Source of the DNA: Candidatus Babeliales bacterium
GTDB taxonomy: Bacteria > Babelota > Babeliae > Babelales > JANWKD01
DNA length: 64,000 nucleotides
Reading direction: 5' to 3'
Assembly: GCA_963722075.1 (NCBI GenBank)
Contig: CAVRJM010000001.1
Span: 544,001-608,000 of the forward strand
Both the position numbers and the translations under genes were made by a program. Positions 13,174 to 30,425 of the stretch are shown in pieces. Each line of letters opens with the position of its first letter. Position 1 is the first letter of the stretch. Under the pieces are notes generated by a model. The model was not told the DNA's origin and searched no databases. It saw nothing but the letters and a program-made list of their open reading frames with translations.

Positions 13174-13322
13174 AATTTATAGAATCTTCATGGCAAATAA
13201 GCAGGAATAACCTTCATTTTATTAAGCTATAACCGCTATAAGATATCACTGATCTCTATTATAACTCTACCAACTATCATTTCTATTTGTCAATAATTAA
13301 GCAATTTGCCATTAATGACTAA

Positions 13323-13350
13323 TTGACTATTACTAAATAATTGATAAAAT
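13323..13350 (+). promoter_or_regulatory. Sigma70-like promoter conserved upstream of paralogs 1 and 2
   Basis: TTGACT-16nt-TAAAAT with TG extension; same motif at about 15879-15906. Confidence 0.55.
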
Positions 13351-13384
13351 AATAATATATATATAAAACTTTATGGAGATTTTC

Positions 13385-15793
13385 ATGAATTATAGGTATT
13401 TTATTCTTCTTTTTACCTTCATTGGGCTTTCTTATTCTGTCATTTTTCCAGGCCGCTTTAATATCTACCTAAAAAATAATACTAGAATGCGTGCTTTATT
13501 TTCATCTCGGAATAGCCTTATTTCTAGCAGCGTTTTCCGTAATTCGTTATTGAAGAAAATAAAACCTTCCTTAAAGAAATTTGATTATCTAAAACGTTTT
13601 TTTACTATAGGTGTGGGATTCGCAGGATATTCCTTAGCAACCTTACCTTACATCGATACATCTCATATAAAGATTTCATTGGAACAATTTAAAAAAGAAT
13701 TAGAAAACCCGCACCGCGTTGCGCACATCATATTATATGATGAAGATCTTTACGAACAATATATTGAATTTATTAATGTTAATTTTTACGAATTAATAAC
13801 CAGTCGCCAAAGAGTCAATATTTTTAAGGTGCTTGACCTTCTTATTAAGAATGACAAAGATAATATTAATTATTTTTATGAATCAATTAAAACTAATTTT
13901 AACCATATAGTGGAAACCAAATCTGGGTTATCTTTTCTGCAAAATATTATTGAAAGTCGTTTAACATTAATTGATCGTGGGTCATACAATAAAGGCAAAA
14001 AAACATATTTTTCAACGTATGATAATGATGCCATTATTAATGATTTAGTAGAATTATGTTTTGAACCTAAAAGCGCTTTATATAGATCAATGGAAGGTAT
14101 AAGGATCTTGTGGGATTTCTTATTAATTGAAGGAGAAATCTCAAACAAAGCCGGTAAACTAATTTTTATGAAACTCAATAGGTTTAATGATTATTGCTTT
14201 CCCTATCTGGATAGATTACCCCTTGATTACTTAAAGGAAACAGTTACTCATCATGAGCTAAAAGAAATTGTTAATGGATTATTAATAAATACACCACGGG
14301 TCTCATGGTTAGCCCAAATTTTATGGGTGATTAAGCATATCAATGAAGAAACACCAGTTTTAATCAAAGAAATGTTTCTCGAATCCATAAAAAAATCTAT
14401 TCCGATGCCCTATTTAACAGAGGGATGTATTGATCGGCTACTTAAGCCTAATGACCAAAGTGTTTTAATTCCTCTTCTTATGGATAACATTGCGCTCGCA
14501 GCTCAATCACCAGGACTAGCAAATTTAATTACTAGTCACCTAAAAAATAATCCTCAATTAGCATCTCAGTTTTGCAAAACAATAATTAACTTTTGGAATA
14601 AAATAGAAGATTTCCCCTATGCCTTTAAGCTTGCTCAACACTGCATAATTCATGATACAACCACCATTCCATTTTTTATTTCACAGATTAAACCTTCCTC
14701 CAATCTTCAATATCTAGAAGTTGTTTGCATAAATGCTTCCGGTAATAAGGATTTAAAAAACAAATTAGAAGAAGTAATGGAGTCGAATAGTCTTAATAAT
14801 TTTGAAAAAATCGCACGACTTATTAGTTATAGTTATTACTGTACCCATGATTCACACTCATTACTTTCCAAAATTCCTTCGGGTCCAACCAAAAGACATC
14901 TTATTCAAAATAAACATTTGTTTTTAAGCAGCCAAGTGCTTTCTTTTTATTCAAATAACAAAGAACTCAGCGCATTTGCTAATGCTATAATGACATATGA
15001 GGGATTATTACAAAATAATTATTATACGTTTGTACATGGCCAAAAAAGTTGTTATTTATTACCGGAACTTCTTTACACCTTCCTTAATAAAATTAAATAT
15101 GATACCCATACTCATCAGGATTTTATCTATTTACACGTTAAAAAATTAAATAACGATCTGAAAAGTGAAAAACAATTACGCAAATCTATTTTAAAAAATG
15201 GAAGGGGCTTAAGTAATCATCCTTTCCTCTTGTTCACCAATTACACTTTATTTGGTAATGAAATGCATGGAGGGGAAAATACAGCGAAGTATATTGCAGT
15301 CAATGCTAATCAAACTGATGTAGAATTAAATTTTGATGAAATTTTTTATAATCATGATTTACCTCATGATATTTATAATAAATATAAAGCTCGTTTAGAG
15401 CATCTTCAACGAGAATATTTACAATTGACTCCCTATGGCACCTGTATTCTAATTGCAATTCCAAAAGTCACCGCACATAAACATGTTTATTTAACACTGC
15501 CAGAGGGATATAAAAATAGCCTTGAATTTAAAAATGGCATTACAACTAATGACATGCAACTTTTTATGAAAAAATTGGAAAAGTCGCCAGAACTTATTAA
15601 AAACACTGATGAACTTATATTTTGCATCCCCATGACTACCGATAAAAATGGCGGCTTAAACCCAGAAAGCGGTATCAAAGTTTTTCCTTTTAGCGCAGCT
15701 AATCCATCAGCTTTAGATGCCTGGTACGCACAAGTACATGCGCTATTTGATGAAATATCGGAGGATATTAAAAATCATGGCCACAACAATTAA
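13385..15793 (+). CDS. Exported effector-like protein, paralog 1 (putative ADP-ribosyltransferase-like C-terminal domain)
   Basis: GGAG RBS before MNYRYF; signal peptide, basic Ser-rich segment, short TM; C-terminal YYTFVHGQ..LLFTN..FCIPMTTDKNGGLNPESGIK shared with two downstream genes. Confidence 0.85.
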   Translation: MNYRYFILLFTFIGLSYSVIFPGRFNIYLKNNTRMRALFSSRNSLISSSVFRNSLLKKIKPSLKKFDYLKRFFTIGVGFAGYSLATLPYIDTSHIKISLEQFKKELENPHRVAHIILYDEDLYEQYIEFINVNFYELITSRQRVNIFKVLDLLIKNDKDNINYFYESIKTNFNHIVETKSGLSFLQNIIESRLTLIDRGSYNKGKKTYFSTYDNDAIINDLVELCFEPKSALYRSMEGIRILWDFLLIEGEISNKAGKLIFMKLNRFNDYCFPYLDRLPLDYLKETVTHHELKEIVNGLLINTPRVSWLAQILWVIKHINEETPVLIKEMFLESIKKSIPMPYLTEGCIDRLLKPNDQSVLIPLLMDNIALAAQSPGLANLITSHLKNNPQLASQFCKTIINFWNKIEDFPYAFKLAQHCIIHDTTTIPFFISQIKPSSNLQYLEVVCINASGNKDLKNKLEEVMESNSLNNFEKIARLISYSYYCTHDSHSLLSKIPSGPTKRHLIQNKHLFLSSQVLSFYSNNKELSAFANAIMTYEGLLQNNYYTFVHGQKSCYLLPELLYTFLNKIKYDTHTHQDFIYLHVKKLNNDLKSEKQLRKSILKNGRGLSNHPFLLFTNYTLFGNEMHGGENTAKYIAVNANQTDVELNFDEIFYNHDLPHDIYNKYKARLEHLQREYLQLTPYGTCILIAIPKVTAHKHVYLTLPEGYKNSLEFKNGITTNDMQLFMKKLEKSPELIKNTDELIFCIPMTTDKNGGLNPESGIKVFPFSAANPSALDAWYAQVHALFDEISEDIKNHGHNN

Positions 15794-15932
15794 TATTATT
15801 ACTTCTGGTAGCTCATCAATACATGAGATGAAATGATTTCTGCTTGTCAATAATTAAGCAACTGCCAGCAATATTTAATTGACTATTACTTAATTACTGG
15901 TAAAATAAAAAATAGATATTATGGAGGTTTTC

Positions 15933-17963
15933 ATGAATTATAGGTATTTTATTCTTCTTTTTACCCTTATTGGGCTTACTTATTCCGTCACTTTTCCTGG
16001 CCGTTTTAGCACCTATCTAAAACATAATGCTACCAAAATGCGCGCTTTATTTTCATCTGGGATTAGTTCCAGTTCTTCCGGTATTTTCAATAAGAAAAAG
16101 TTGTTTGAAAAATTAGCAGAAACAAAGTATTTTTTTTCATCTAAAAAATCTGATTATATTAAACCTTTTTTTACTCTGGGTATGGGAATAACGGGATACA
16201 CTATTGCAACATCACCCACTTCTACCGATTCTCATAAAAAAATTTCATTGGGACAATTAAAAATGGAATTAAATAATACTGATCAGGTTACACAAACAAT
16301 ATTATACGATGAAGTTCTTTATAAAGAATATATTGATCTTATTAATACGCATTTCTATGAATTAATAACCAGCGAACAAAGAAATAATCTTTTTACAGTA
16401 ATCACTAATCTAATCCACAACGATAGGGATAATATTGATTATTTCCTTACCTCAATAATAACAAATTTAAAATATATAATAGATGATTACCCAAGCCCCG
16501 GGATAACTTTTATACACAATATTTTTAAAAGTCGTTTATCATGGTTTGATTATTTTTTATTTATAATAGGTAGGCTCCCCCCTGACTTAAAATTAAAATA
16601 TGATAATGATAAAGTTTGTAAAGATCTAGTCGATGCTTTTGAAAATTTATTCACTAGTCTTGTAGATAATATTGCTATTACTGCTCATTCCGCCCCTCAA
16701 TTGCTTGGACTGATTACGCCGCTAATAGCTGATTTAGTCCCTCATTTTTGTGAGCAAGTAGTGCTTCATTGGAATCAGATACAAGAATCGCCTATTTCAT
16801 ATAAGCTTGCTGAATACTGTATTCTTCATGACCCATCTACTATTTCATTTTTCAGTACGCAGATCAAACCAACCTCCTCTATTCAATTTATAGAAGTGGT
16901 CAACAGATACGCACCTTGTGATAAAAATATAAAAAAATCATTAAAACAACTAGCAAAAGACGATTATGCCCATGATTTTGAAAAAATTGCACGATTACTC
17001 AGCTATAATGCTTATTGTACTAAGGACTCCTGCTCATTAATTTCTAAAATTAATTCCAGCTCAACCAAAAATCATCTTACTGAAAATCCAAGCACCTTAT
17101 CTAAAAGCCCTGTACTGAGCGCTTATGCAAATAATAAAGAATTAAGTGCATTAGCAAATACAATAATGTCATATGAGCAATCTCTGCAAAATAACTATTA
17201 CACCTTCGTACATGGCCAAAAGAGTTGTTATTTATTACCCGAATTATTAAACACTCATTTCTATAAGATTAGGAATAATGATAATGACCAGCATAACTTT
17301 ATCTATTTACATGTTAAGGAATTAAATAAAAGCACAAAGGCTGAAAAACAATTACGTAAGTCAATTTTAAAAAATGGCAGAGGGCGTAACAATAGGCCTT
17401 ATCTTTTATTTGCCAATCGGGCTCTTTTTGGTAATGAAACAAATCCAGGATCAAATACAGCAGGATATATTTTAGAAAATGATAATGTAGGCAATGTACA
17501 ATTACGCTTTGAAGAGATTTTTAAAAACCATCATTTATCTGAAAATTTTTATAACAAATATAAAACACGTTTAGAGCATCTACAGCAAGAATATTCGCAG
17601 CTTACTCCGTATGGCACTTGTATGCTCATTGCAATTCCAAAAGAAACCATTCATAAACATGTTTATTTAGCAATTCCAGGCGGTTATAAAAAGGCTATTA
17701 CATTGAAATCTGGCACTTCTATTCATGATATTAGGGACATCATGGCAATAGTTCAAAAAGCACCCGAGCTCATCATTGATACTGATCAACTTGAATTCTG
17801 CATACCCATGACTACTGATAAAAATGGGGGCTTAAACCCGGAAAGCGGTATTAAAATATTTCCATTCAGCGCTGCCAACACCAGCGCCTTAGATGCATGG
17901 TACGCTCAAGTGCATGCATTATTTGATGAGATAAAGAAGGATATTGAACAACATGCTCAATAA
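15933..17963 (+). CDS. Exported effector-like protein, paralog 2
   Basis: Near-identical N-terminus to paralog 1; lacks part of the central helical region; same C-terminal domain with QLE motif. Confidence 0.85.
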   Translation: MNYRYFILLFTLIGLTYSVTFPGRFSTYLKHNATKMRALFSSGISSSSSGIFNKKKLFEKLAETKYFFSSKKSDYIKPFFTLGMGITGYTIATSPTSTDSHKKISLGQLKMELNNTDQVTQTILYDEVLYKEYIDLINTHFYELITSEQRNNLFTVITNLIHNDRDNIDYFLTSIITNLKYIIDDYPSPGITFIHNIFKSRLSWFDYFLFIIGRLPPDLKLKYDNDKVCKDLVDAFENLFTSLVDNIAITAHSAPQLLGLITPLIADLVPHFCEQVVLHWNQIQESPISYKLAEYCILHDPSTISFFSTQIKPTSSIQFIEVVNRYAPCDKNIKKSLKQLAKDDYAHDFEKIARLLSYNAYCTKDSCSLISKINSSSTKNHLTENPSTLSKSPVLSAYANNKELSALANTIMSYEQSLQNNYYTFVHGQKSCYLLPELLNTHFYKIRNNDNDQHNFIYLHVKELNKSTKAEKQLRKSILKNGRGRNNRPYLLFANRALFGNETNPGSNTAGYILENDNVGNVQLRFEEIFKNHHLSENFYNKYKTRLEHLQQEYSQLTPYGTCMLIAIPKETIHKHVYLAIPGGYKKAITLKSGTSIHDIRDIMAIVQKAPELIIDTDQLEFCIPMTTDKNGGLNPESGIKIFPFSAANTSALDAWYAQVHALFDEIKKDIEQHAQ

Positions 17964-19998
17964 AAAATTAATAATTTTATTACTTATTATTTCTTGTGGT
18001 TCATCATTACCTGCGATGAATTATTTTCATTGGGCTAAAAAGAAGCTAACACCGCGATCACTTTTTTCGTTAGTTTATAAACACGAGAACTATGGGTTCA
18101 AGGGAAATCAAATTACTCCTAGAAGGTCATTTTTCAATTACGCAAGAACCCCATTAAGTCGTTTTTATCAAAGAGATACCTTATTATCCAAAACATTTTT
18201 CACTATAGGTACTGCTCTGGGGTTAGGGATATATAAGCATGCATATGCAGTGGATGAAAGACCCTTAGGTTGTGAACCTGTAACAGGTTCTAATTATGCA
18301 TGGCATCCTCTTATTCCGGAAGATATCCCGATAACTTTAGACAATTTTATAAAGTATCTTGAATCTTTAGACAACAAAAGCTTTGCTGATGAAGCAACAA
18401 GAAATAATGACATCCAAACCCAATATGAATCGCTCATTGGTAACAATTTTAAAGAATTGCTTACGGGCAACCATCGTCAAAAATTTTTATTATTTCTTAA
18501 ATACTTTATTCAAAAAAGTAATGAAAAAAATCTACTACAAAAGATAGCGCTCCATCTAGAAGATCTTTTATCAGATTACGAAGGGCATTGTGTAATAGAT
18601 AATGCATTTATACCTTCTGATTACCAGTCAGTAACTTATTTTTTACCATACTTATTTGATAACTTAGCACTCTGTGCACAAACAGAAAAATTAATGTATT
18701 TAATACGAGAAAGTTATTACTTTTTCGGTCAATTATCCCATACCTATAAATCAATGGGATATTCACCGGATATCCATCAATTACTGCAAAGCCTTCCTAG
18801 GCGATTAAAAGAACAATGGAACTCGGTACATACGAAACCTTATGCATATTTATTATTACAAAATGCTATTTCATTAGAACCTTCTTTACTCGACTTTTTT
18901 TTACAAAATATTGATTACACTACACATTTTAAGGTAATAAAATCATTGAATAAGTTAGCCCCTTGTAATATACATCTTAAAAATAATTTGATTAATCATA
19001 CTGAAAATGATCAAATAATCGATTTTCCTTTACTTATGAAGTTATTAGCCTATAGCAGCAGCTGCCCAAACGATAATGCGCTGTTGAATCGTTTACCTAA
19101 AACTATGACGGTCAAACATTTAAATCAAAATAAACATATGGTTAACAGTCTTATTGTTCCCAACTATATTGATAATACTGAATTAACTAGAATGGTGAAT
19201 GCCATTATTGCTCAAGAGAACACATTAAAAGAGAATTATTATACATTTATACATGGGCAACGAAGTAGTTATTTACTTGCTGAGCATCTTTATACGTTTT
19301 TAAAGCAACAACATTCAAATGATAATCCGGAATTCCTCTACTTACATGTTAATAAAGAAGTTAATGATAAAAAAACCGAAAAGAAATTACGAAAATATTT
19401 GCTTGCTAATGGTAGAAATAATGATGAAGATAGACAACGAATTCTGTTTGTAAATTATGCCTTATTTGCTAACGACACAAATTCCGGGTCAAACTCTGCT
19501 CATTATATCATACAAAACCATAACGTAGGCGCTATATCCATATCATTTGAAGAAATTTTTAAAAATAACAATATTGAACATTTATATTTTAAGTATCAAA
19601 GCCGTTTGAGACAATTGTATAACGAATATAAATCACTTAACCAATATGGTACCTGTATTTTAATTGCTGTACCAAAATCAACCATTCATAAACATCTCTA
19701 TACGGCTGTATCTGGCGGCGGTAAGCGTGCAGTAGATATTAAAGGACATGGTTATACTTATGATATCCGATTAATCTTGAAAACAATTGAAGAATCTCCT
19801 GAGCTTATTAAAGATACTGATCAATTAGAATTTTGTATCCCCATGACAACCGATAAAAATGGCGGATTAAACCCTGAAAGCGGTATTAAGATTTTTCCTT
19901 TTAGCGCTGCTAATCCAAGTGCTTTAGATGCCTGGTATGCACAAGTACATGCATTATTTGATGAAATACAAAAAGATATACAAAGCAATGCCCAATGA
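17953..19998 (+). CDS. Exported effector-like protein, paralog 3
   Basis: Signal peptide ending SLPA then Met; Arg-rich segment; FFTIGTALGLGIY; YYTFIHGQ..ILFVN..QLEFCIPMTTDKNGG. Confidence 0.85.
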   Translation: MLNKKLIILLLIISCGSSLPAMNYFHWAKKKLTPRSLFSLVYKHENYGFKGNQITPRRSFFNYARTPLSRFYQRDTLLSKTFFTIGTALGLGIYKHAYAVDERPLGCEPVTGSNYAWHPLIPEDIPITLDNFIKYLESLDNKSFADEATRNNDIQTQYESLIGNNFKELLTGNHRQKFLLFLKYFIQKSNEKNLLQKIALHLEDLLSDYEGHCVIDNAFIPSDYQSVTYFLPYLFDNLALCAQTEKLMYLIRESYYFFGQLSHTYKSMGYSPDIHQLLQSLPRRLKEQWNSVHTKPYAYLLLQNAISLEPSLLDFFLQNIDYTTHFKVIKSLNKLAPCNIHLKNNLINHTENDQIIDFPLLMKLLAYSSSCPNDNALLNRLPKTMTVKHLNQNKHMVNSLIVPNYIDNTELTRMVNAIIAQENTLKENYYTFIHGQRSSYLLAEHLYTFLKQQHSNDNPEFLYLHVNKEVNDKKTEKKLRKYLLANGRNNDEDRQRILFVNYALFANDTNSGSNSAHYIIQNHNVGAISISFEEIFKNNNIEHLYFKYQSRLRQLYNEYKSLNQYGTCILIAVPKSTIHKHLYTAVSGGGKRAVDIKGHGYTYDIRLILKTIEESPELIKDTDQLEFCIPMTTDKNGGLNPESGIKIFPFSAANPSALDAWYAQVHALFDEIQKDIQSNAQ

Positions 19999-20103: not shown

Positions 20104-20718
20104 ATGATTAAAATAAAAAAACTTATTTTTTTACTATTGCTTATAAATACATCTCACCTCAATTCGATGCACATAAGTGATTTGTGGCAAGAATCTGCTT
20201 CTGCAAAAAAGATTTTTGCTTTATCAGTAGCTTCTATACTTGGTTATAATATGCTTCATAGATTCATAAGCTATCACCTCAGCCCATTTTATATTAAGAA
20301 TAAAACGGTAATTCAGAACTTAAGCAATGTTGAGGCAGCAATCGAAGGCTTCCAAGATGCATCGCGACCAAGTCTGCTTATCGGCGCCCTTATAGTCGGT
20401 GCTTCACGCATAGGTTCTCTGCCTAAACTAGAATGGGCTGATTTAATTAAACCCGGCCTTGCTACGCTAGGAATTATAACAGTATTTTCCTTATTTGATG
20501 GCTATCGAAAAGCACTATATTACGATCATGAAGAAATGGTTAATGGAAGGACTGGAAAGATGAAGACATCGCTCATCAATAAGGGGCCCGAACAATCTAA
20601 GAGATTCGTTGCGTCTGCTTTTGCTAATGACTCGAAGCAATTTTGGGGAACCATAGCGGCTATAGGATTACCTCTTGGCTTTATTACTATGCGTTATATG
20701 AAAAGTAGGAATGCTTAA
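20104..20718 (+). CDS. Exported multi-TM hypothetical protein
   Basis: Signal peptide ending HLNS then Met; several hydrophobic segments. Confidence 0.75.
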   Translation: MIKIKKLIFLLLLINTSHLNSMHISDLWQESASAKKIFALSVASILGYNMLHRFISYHLSPFYIKNKTVIQNLSNVEAAIEGFQDASRPSLLIGALIVGASRIGSLPKLEWADLIKPGLATLGIITVFSLFDGYRKALYYDHEEMVNGRTGKMKTSLINKGPEQSKRFVASAFANDSKQFWGTIAAIGLPLGFITMRYMKSRNA

Positions 20719-30005: not shown

Positions 30006-30425
30006 CTAATTTCTTTTTGGTTGAGACTTATTTTTTTGCAATAAAGTATGTATATATGCTATCGTGGGAACATTTTCAGGATAAAAATGCACTTTCTTAT
30101 CTCCAACTGAAAAATATTGTAAACGTCCCAGCTTTTCAATATGTTGTTGAGTTTCTAAAAATATGCTGCAAGCTTCTTTATACGTTGAATATTCTTCTAG
30201 TTCTTTACCTTTCAATTCAGAAGAAAAAATAGGTCCATCAAAAAATTTAACATCATTTGATTTATGAGAGCATAAGTTTCTCATTCCTGAAAAATAATTT
30301 TGAATAAGCTTAAATTGTTGATTAATTCTTCCAAGATTTCTGACCCGTCGATACATAGAATTACTTAATGATGGCCACAAAACAAGAATTAAACCCATAT
30401 AAAAAATGCTTTTTATTTTTGACAT
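30006..30425 (-). CDS. Exported hypothetical protein with presequence-like segment
   Basis: AGGAG RBS; signal peptide ending SLSNS then MYRRVRNLGR...MRNLCS. Confidence 0.75.
   Translation of the reverse strand: MSKIKSIFYMGLILVLWPSLSNSMYRRVRNLGRINQQFKLIQNYFSGMRNLCSHKSNDVKFFDGPIFSSELKGKELEEYSTYKEACSIFLETQQHIEKLGRLQYFSVGDKKVHFYPENVPTIAYIHTLLQKNKSQPKRN

Follow-up and report, generated by a model that had tools for sequence, protein, structure and literature searches.

The window studied here, 64,000 nucleotides of a Candidatus Babeliales bacterium (assembly GCA_963722075.1, G000:C1:544001-608000), raises the question of what a row of three similar genes encodes and where in a host their products would go. 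The source genome (G000) measures 1.47 Mb at 34.7% guanine-cytosine content and is 99% complete. Positions 13385-19998 of the window are filled by three same-strand open reading frames (ORFs) of 802, 676 and 681 amino acids. Each protein is laid out in the same order: a signal peptide, then 53-60 residues that are basic and acid-poor, a Gly-rich segment 13 residues long, a variable middle region (helical by our own reading) and, at the C-terminus, a conserved domain of about 280 residues. We propose that the three genes encode secreted effectors with a predicted ADP-ribosyltransferase (ART) domain, and that an exchangeable cassette at the N-terminus directs them to the host mitochondrion. This chain as a whole is slightly favoured. 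That the proteins are secreted host effectors is considered probable, and a mitochondrial address is the preferred, if contested, role of the cassette. The features are as follows.

13285..13384, with a copy before paralog 2 at ~15840-15932, + strand: duplicated upstream region of ~100 bases (local DNA alignment)
13385..15793, + strand: paralog 1 (P0001), 802 amino acids, longest middle region of the three
13385..13438, + strand: paralog 1 predicted Sec signal peptide (heuristic)
13439..13597, + strand: paralog 1 presequence-like stretch, basic and acid-poor, 13 Lys/Arg and 1 Asp/Glu
13598..13636, + strand: paralog 1 weakly hydrophobic Gly-rich segment
14963..15790, + strand: paralog 1 ART-fold domain, by homology to the modelled domain
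15933..17963, + strand: paralog 2 (P0002), 676 amino acids
15933..15986, + strand: paralog 2 predicted Sec signal peptide (heuristic)
15987..16166, + strand: paralog 2 basic, acid-poor stretch, 12 Lys/Arg and 3 Asp/Glu
16167..16205, + strand: paralog 2 weakly hydrophobic Gly-rich segment
17190..17879, + strand: paralog 2 ART-fold core, the modelled stretch (His427, Asn495, Phe499-Gly-Asn501, Tyr512, Glu621), by model, fold matches and conservation
17953..19998, + strand: paralog 3 (P0003), 681 amino acids, start overlapping the paralog 2 stop
17953..18015, + strand: paralog 3 predicted Sec signal peptide (heuristic), ending directly before a Met
18016..18195, + strand: paralog 3 Met-initiated basic, acid-poor stretch, 12 Lys/Arg and 2 Asp/Glu
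18196..18249, + strand: paralog 3 Gly-rich hydrophobic segment with AYA after it
19165..19995, + strand: paralog 3 ART-fold domain (Glu626)

The conserved domain of the window paralogs is very likely of the ART fold. The model of the paralog 2 core (predicted local distance difference test score, pLDDT, 95.8) has the split beta-sheet of six strands that forms the ART core, and its fold matches include members of the superfamily's His type: diphtheria toxin (7k7b), exotoxin A (1xk9), the catalytic domains of PARPs, Tpt1, ParT/RES and DarT. The unnamed "bacterial enzymes" of the first-pass annotation can thus be given a family by fold. Identity to these matches is at most 18%, and the domain carries large helical inserts. 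With a first 292-residue model, Foldseek found nothing in the PDB and only helical bundles in a wider search; the ART core was exposed once the terminal helices had been removed from the model, and Foldseek then returned only DarT at E 1.0, the fold matches above coming from VIA. Pfam gave no match for the three proteins, nor NCBIfam for 20 homologs, and PDB sequence searches (single sequence; 46- and 94-row profiles) and ESM Atlas searches were likewise without a match. As candidates for the family itself, FRG was found in 0 of 121 genomes of the phylum and DarT in 0 of 201 (the DarT control likewise had no match). Judged by sequence, the window family belongs to no named ART family tested (DarT, FRG, PARP, RES, diphtheria-toxin-like).

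ARTs fall into an H-Y-E class with Tyr in strand 2 and an R-S-E class with Ser in strand 2. In the 94-row alignment from which conservation was read, the strand-1 residue is His in 85 rows, Arg in 7 and Asn in 2; strand order, for which the aligner gives ranges only, suggests that this His is equivalent to the toxin His. Strand 2 reads Leu-Leu-x-x-Asn with no conserved Tyr or Ser, a Tyr being retained in the following helix in 85 of the 94 rows. Strand 2 and the part that follows it carry a conserved Asn and a conserved Phe-Gly-Asn. Two Asn, unusual for ARTs, are among the best-kept residues. The strand-5 residue is Glu in 43 rows, Gln in 38 and another residue in 13; paralogs 2 and 3 have the Glu, and paralog 1, with Ile745 instead, may be inactive or act differently.

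It is rather unlikely, but worth weighing, that the fold serves something other than a transferase, such as an NADase, an enzyme acting on RNA or DNA, or a scaffold without activity, a case compatible with mitochondrial addressing. The variable strand 5, the absence of a conserved strand-2 Tyr or Ser and the two unusual Asn speak for it, as do the RES, Tpt1 and Tne2 chains, whose fold scores are similar to those of the toxins. Against it stand the His and Glu kept in the close clade that contains the window genes, and the cassette's co-travelling with an ADP-ribosylhydrolase (described below), which would imply a reversible modification.

Two giant-virus proteins, A0A481Z173 (Mimivirus LCMiAC02) and A0A1V0SG32 (Hokovirus HKV1), were matched in BFVD at E 1e-9 and 2e-6 with template modelling scores of 0.54 and 0.58 and 14-16% identity. 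Both have the overall fold of the window family, helical inserts included, and by extension these uncharacterised proteins are probably ART-fold as well. The accessible text of a viral ART survey (PMC9503650) does not mention Hokovirus or Klosneuvir.

Signal peptides and cleavage sites were predicted with our own hydropathy and (-3,-1) heuristic rather than SignalP. By it, all three paralogs possess the features of Sec/signal peptidase I substrates (n-, h- and c-regions, small residues at -3 and -1). The first-pass annotation had described a signal peptide followed by a basic, Asp/Glu-poor stretch in each paralog, and residue counts bear this out: between cleavage site and hydrophobic segment, paralog 1 holds 13 Lys/Arg and 1 Asp/Glu in 53 residues, paralog 2 has 12 and 3 in 60, and paralog 3 has 12 and 2 in 59. 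The part of paralog 1 it had quoted as carrying 11 basic and no acidic residues does so over 46 residues. As background we used the 537 of 1380 non-overlapping G000 ORFs that were signal-bearing by the heuristic with at most one further membrane segment. In net charge over the first 40 mature residues, paralog 1 ranks in the top 0.7% of these ORFs and paralogs 2 and 3 in the top 1.9%, which is more than AT-rich composition accounts for. The N-termini of paralogs 1 and 2 are homologous, and the window therefore offers two independent cases, not three.

Behind the basic stretch, the Gly-containing hydrophobic segment was found as first quoted (FFTIGVGFAGY, FFTLGMGITGY and a third), with AYA in paralog 3 only, a possible second cleavage site. 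The segments are short and weak, with 13-residue mean Kyte-Doolittle values of 1.2-1.6.

The same arrangement recurs across the phylum. The family was found with one query in 65 of 201 genomes, about a third; outside the phylum, it is represented by the giant-virus fold matches and one locus labelled uncultured Pseudomonadota. For the N-termini, we collected 91 distinct ORFs whose 5' end was intact; 80 were signal-bearing by the heuristic, and the other 11 were dropped. Thirteen database proteins were added, excluding P0011 (no signal) and P0005, P0007, P0014, P0015 and P0018 (truncated or duplicate), and the resulting 93 members formed 67 clusters by N-terminal similarity. Basic, acid-poor N-termini make up 28 of these 67 clusters versus 32 of the 537 signal-bearing G000 ORFs; at the relatives' own loci the figures are 20/65 family members versus 6/54 neighbouring signal-bearing genes. 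They are enriched in Arg, Ser, Gln, Ala and Thr, the class definition itself building in Asp/Glu depletion and part of the Arg excess but not the excess of the other four. A Met occupies +1 in 21/28 basic versus 7/39 other N-termini, under a cleavage rule that favours Met in both classes. A Gly/Ala hydrophobic segment follows in 16/28 versus 3/39, by a rule defined after the sequences had been seen. Mean charge falls from +9.4 before to -1.6 after the segment. On an 81-row FastTree phylogeny the N-terminal state changes at least 15 times.

G000 itself has seven members. The four outside the window (C1:1384520-1386979, C1:1165279-1167249, C1:928133-929401 and C3:9702-11060) comprise one with a full cassette, two without and one with a short basic start plus hydrophobic segment. 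Elsewhere, L080 (G061:C6) and L081 (G036:C58) are tandem arrays of ankyrin-like-repeat proteins with the ART domain, the strand-1 His being replaced by Arg in several copies.

The cassette is also found in front of other proteins. One case comes from genus g47. Over its first 84 mature residues, a MavL-like ADP-ribosylhydrolase of G123 shares 67% and 49% identity with the N-termini of two of the three ART genes clustered in G175, and it matches the third weakly; the G123 protein matches the MavL-like Pfam family from residue 90 on (E 9e-119) and has no ART match. In G137, the similarity between an ART gene and its non-ART neighbour runs from the signal through the basic stretch and the hydrophobic segment into the beginning of the body (44% over 227 residues); an HExxH-like word in the neighbour gave no M48 match. 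Two basic-start proteins of G000 have paralogs whose homology starts only downstream of the basic stretch. Within G000, no cassette sequence is shared at useful E-values except between paralogs 1 and 2; the paralog 3 cassette was not found in three relatives, nor that of G110 in four others. Since the unit has apparently been gained, lost and moved between writer and eraser, it would behave like an address. At L176:1476-2561 (G175:C10), ART genes with a cassette flank an ORF that looks transposase-like by eye and may have served the shuffling. G000 also encodes a secreted MavL-like ADP-ribosylhydrolase (C1:931396-932955, L003:8469-9953; Pfam E 2e-115), three genes from a distant ART-family member, and such genes occur in 32 of the 201 genomes, in up to about seven copies.

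The route that we propose has five steps. Sec export and cleavage by signal peptidase, as heuristically predicted, would expose the cassette at the N-terminus. The protein would then pass the outer membrane through a secretin or type II secretion system (T2SS)-like machine or in vesicles: G000 encodes two T2SSF genes and a secretin, and vesicles were observed in Chromulinavorax (PMC6561590). FHIPEP of type III and CagE/TrbE/VirB (VirB4) of type IV secretion were not found in G000, the controls having matched in 4 and 1 of 14 genomes, and no translocation or receptor domain of AB toxins was seen. In the host cytosol, the new basic, acid-poor N-terminus would be read by TOM/TIM23. The weak Gly-rich segment may then arrest import at the inner membrane with the basic side in the matrix, as on the mitochondrial stop-transfer route (PMC8061763); the helical middle and the ART domain would then lie in the intermembrane space and might be freed by a second cut. 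There, the putative enzyme, its fold taken from the model, would use nicotinamide adenine dinucleotide (NAD+) to modify a mitochondrial protein or would consume it.

Several results do not support this reading or limit it. The window stretches that stand out in charge are no more amphipathic than shuffles (p 0.31-0.95), and the amphipathicity excess that exists at family level is not specific to the basic class. By the strict definition (at most one acid, net charge at least +5), 16 of 537 mature N-termini are basic versus 1.4% of 5181 interior windows, an excess of only about twofold. Among the 25 of 32 basic-start G000 proteins that were scanned, Pfam names a penicillin-binding protein, MreC, a PD40 propeller, LigD and an epimerase; the class is thus mixed, and charge alone is no proof of mitochondrial targeting. 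The R-3 word of mitochondrial processing peptidase (MPP) sites (PMC3673636) was seen in 7 of the 28 basic family N-termini versus 3.6 expected (p 0.07), control spacings were equally raised (p 0.01-0.27), and it was found in neither paralog 2 nor paralog 3. The inner membrane peptidase-type second-cleavage motif is borderline (5/16 versus 2.2 expected, p 0.05). After phylogenetic correction, which left 7 pairs, neither the Met-at-+1 nor the hydrophobic-segment association is significant. As to the eraser, the G000 copy lacks the cassette, only 16 of the 32 MavL-like-positive genomes are among the 65 ART-positive ones, and at 15 loci no ART gene lies within 1.5 kb of the MavL-like gene. The claim that signal cleavage unmasks a mitochondrial import signal is thus upheld in part: secretion signals, charge pattern, residue enrichment, Met at +1 and cassette mobility support it, whereas amphipathicity, a specific MPP motif and phylogenetically corrected significance do not.

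The missing amphipathic and MPP signals in the three window stretches, together with the shortness of the hydrophobic segments, would suit secreted ART effectors whose cassette is a general membrane address (polybasic and lipid-binding, with an anchor, for the vacuole, the surface of the bacterium or the outer membrane of the mitochondrion) or a transit peptide of the plastid type instead of a TOM/TIM23 presequence; plastid transit peptides are also Ser/Thr-rich and acid-free. We regard this as unlikely, though not negligible. It sits poorly with the Arg enrichment, with the R-x-[FYL]-[SAT] words that end the stretch in 9 of 28 relatives, and with the drop from positive to negative charge across the segment, as in stop-transfer proteins. 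Moreover, the phylum's only cultured parasite of flagellates is found in association with the mitochondrion (PMC6561590).

Improbable is the idea that the basic stretch has no targeting role, being a pro-peptide or a disordered linker, and that the ART effectors are cytosolic. Enrichment in Ser, Gln, Ala, Thr, Gly and Pro is typical of disordered linkers too, and the phylogenetically independent tests leave room for it; yet Asp/Glu are nearly absent over 50-70 residues in many unrelated sequences, the stretch is coupled to Met at +1 and to the hydrophobic segment, and the whole unit is transferred between enzyme families. Just as improbable are proteins that span the bacterial inner membrane once, with a signal, a basic loop in the periplasm, an anchor and the ART in the cytoplasm, serving for example phage or competitor defence: a hydrophobic segment behind a cleaved signal can be a SecY stop-transfer, and RES, DarT and ParT among the fold matches are bacterial toxin-antitoxin or defence enzymes, but the basic side would be periplasmic, contrary to the positive-inside rule, the 39 of 67 family N-termini without cassette still keep the signal, which makes export the normal state of the domain, the three ORFs are not separated by any small gene of immunity type, and the domain has giant-virus relatives.

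A wider Met pattern runs through the whole genome. Of the 537 signal-bearing ORFs, 252 have a Met shortly after the hydrophobic core, preceded in 171 by Ala, Ser or Gly, at a background Met frequency of 1.65%. In about a third to half of the signal-bearing proteins, Met directly follows the predicted cut. The next residue is Glu in 87 cases, Gln in 34, Asn in 21 and Asp in 14, and Met-Glu/Asp/Asn/Gln starts are substrates of eukaryotic NatB acetylation. Pfam found 9 WD40-type propellers and 9 ankyrins in a random 120 of 173 Met-at-+1 proteins, versus 4 ankyrins in 120 of 295 non-Met proteins, with no WD40 among the 25 families listed, mostly ordinary enzymes. The pattern fits a cut that leaves the protein with an N-terminus like those of the host, one variant of which would be the presequence-like cassette. 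More tentatively, Babeliales may run a genome-wide "second N-terminus" system, in which the cut gives hundreds of effectors a fresh Met, Met-Glu/Gln/Asn/Asp starts would lead to the cytosol and Met-plus-presequence cassettes to the mitochondrion. The cassette, shuffled among ARTs, MavL-like erasers and other enzymes, would then form a reversible mitochondrial ADP-ribosylation switch without an injection machine, which would explain the remodelling by Chromulinavorax.

Other secreted G000 proteins also have presequence-like starts (C1:1021735-1022958, 1340327-1341535, 1337561-1340311, 245095-247356, 940036-941004 and 1146031-1147026), with ankyrins, two putative M48 peptidases and a weak DnaJ domain among their cargo. 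The weak Pfam matches on proteins with a basic start, to M48 (two of them), DnaJ, ankyrin and, at E 0.01, mitochondrial ATP synthase b, are taken as suggestive only and not counted. In the window, a 139-amino-acid ORF (30006-30425, - strand) has a signal followed by a Met-initiated, Arg-rich, acid-poor stretch that resembles a mitochondrial presequence even more than those of the paralogs do, and the 204-amino-acid ORF downstream of them (20104-20718, + strand) has a signal, Met at +1 and several hydrophobic segments; neither has a Pfam match. The duplicated upstream DNA is likely a promoter and ribosome site copied along with the gene; an in-frame ATG at 13373 precedes the paralog 1 start, and the ORFs of paralogs 2 and 3 overlap by 11 bases. 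The final 135 bases of the ART domains (15623-15757, 17799-17933 and 19834-19968) are 82-90% identical among the paralogs, with 1 and 3 closest, versus 59-71% for the rest of the domain, possibly by gene conversion.

Host-mitochondrion remodelling by Dependentiae is described in one paper, whose accessible text names no effector for the step (PMC6561590). The present findings put names to candidates: the ART-fold family, present in roughly one in three of the genomes sampled, the short cassette and a putative eraser. If the proposal is true, a whole phylum would join Legionella in mitochondrial ADP-ribosylation, delivery by Sec alone would be a new route by which a parasite gets to the host mitochondrion, and a divergent ART family shared with giant viruses would be added. 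It would also provide a sorting rule for unannotated secreted proteins: trim the signal and read the Met-initiated remainder as a eukaryotic protein. A Nocardia protein with a signal peptide is reported to target mitochondria (10.1101/341651). In the literature covered, with subscription papers and supplements outside its scope, no description of Dependentiae ARTs, presequence-like cassettes or Met at +1 was found.

Among known systems, fungal and oomycete effectors with a signal and transit-peptide mimicry (LOCALIZER, PMC5353544) also have a host sorting signal exposed by cleavage of the secretion signal, and localisation of a Cardinium effector depends on signal removal (bioRxiv 10.64898/2026.06.05.730497). 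As far as these sources were accessible, they differ in concerning eukaryotic pathogens or nuclear targeting, with no ART family, portable presequence-plus-anchor cassette or Met at +1; the word "methionine" is absent from the accessible Cardinium text. Eukaryotic bipartite presequences of the cytochrome b2 type (PMC8061763, PMC3673636) likewise combine a basic acid-poor stretch with a hydrophobic segment, positive before and negative after. The window cassette, unlike them, lies behind a bacterial signal peptide, has a short, Gly/Ala-rich hydrophobic part, and is a candidate only as regards amphipathicity and MPP motifs. Legionella Ceg3/Lpg0080 is a Dot/Icm substrate, whereas the window proteins have Sec signals in a genome without a VirB4 or FHIPEP match; its site on the translocase faces the matrix (PMC9191684), whereas a stop-transfer topology would put the window domain in the intermembrane space. 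The likeness, with the window activity predicted, is one of function and context rather than of sequence comparison: in Legionella as well (Ceg3/Lpg0080 and Lpg0081; PMC12522546, PMC9191684), an intracellular bacterium of protists combines a mitochondrial ART effector with a MavL-like eraser in the same genome.

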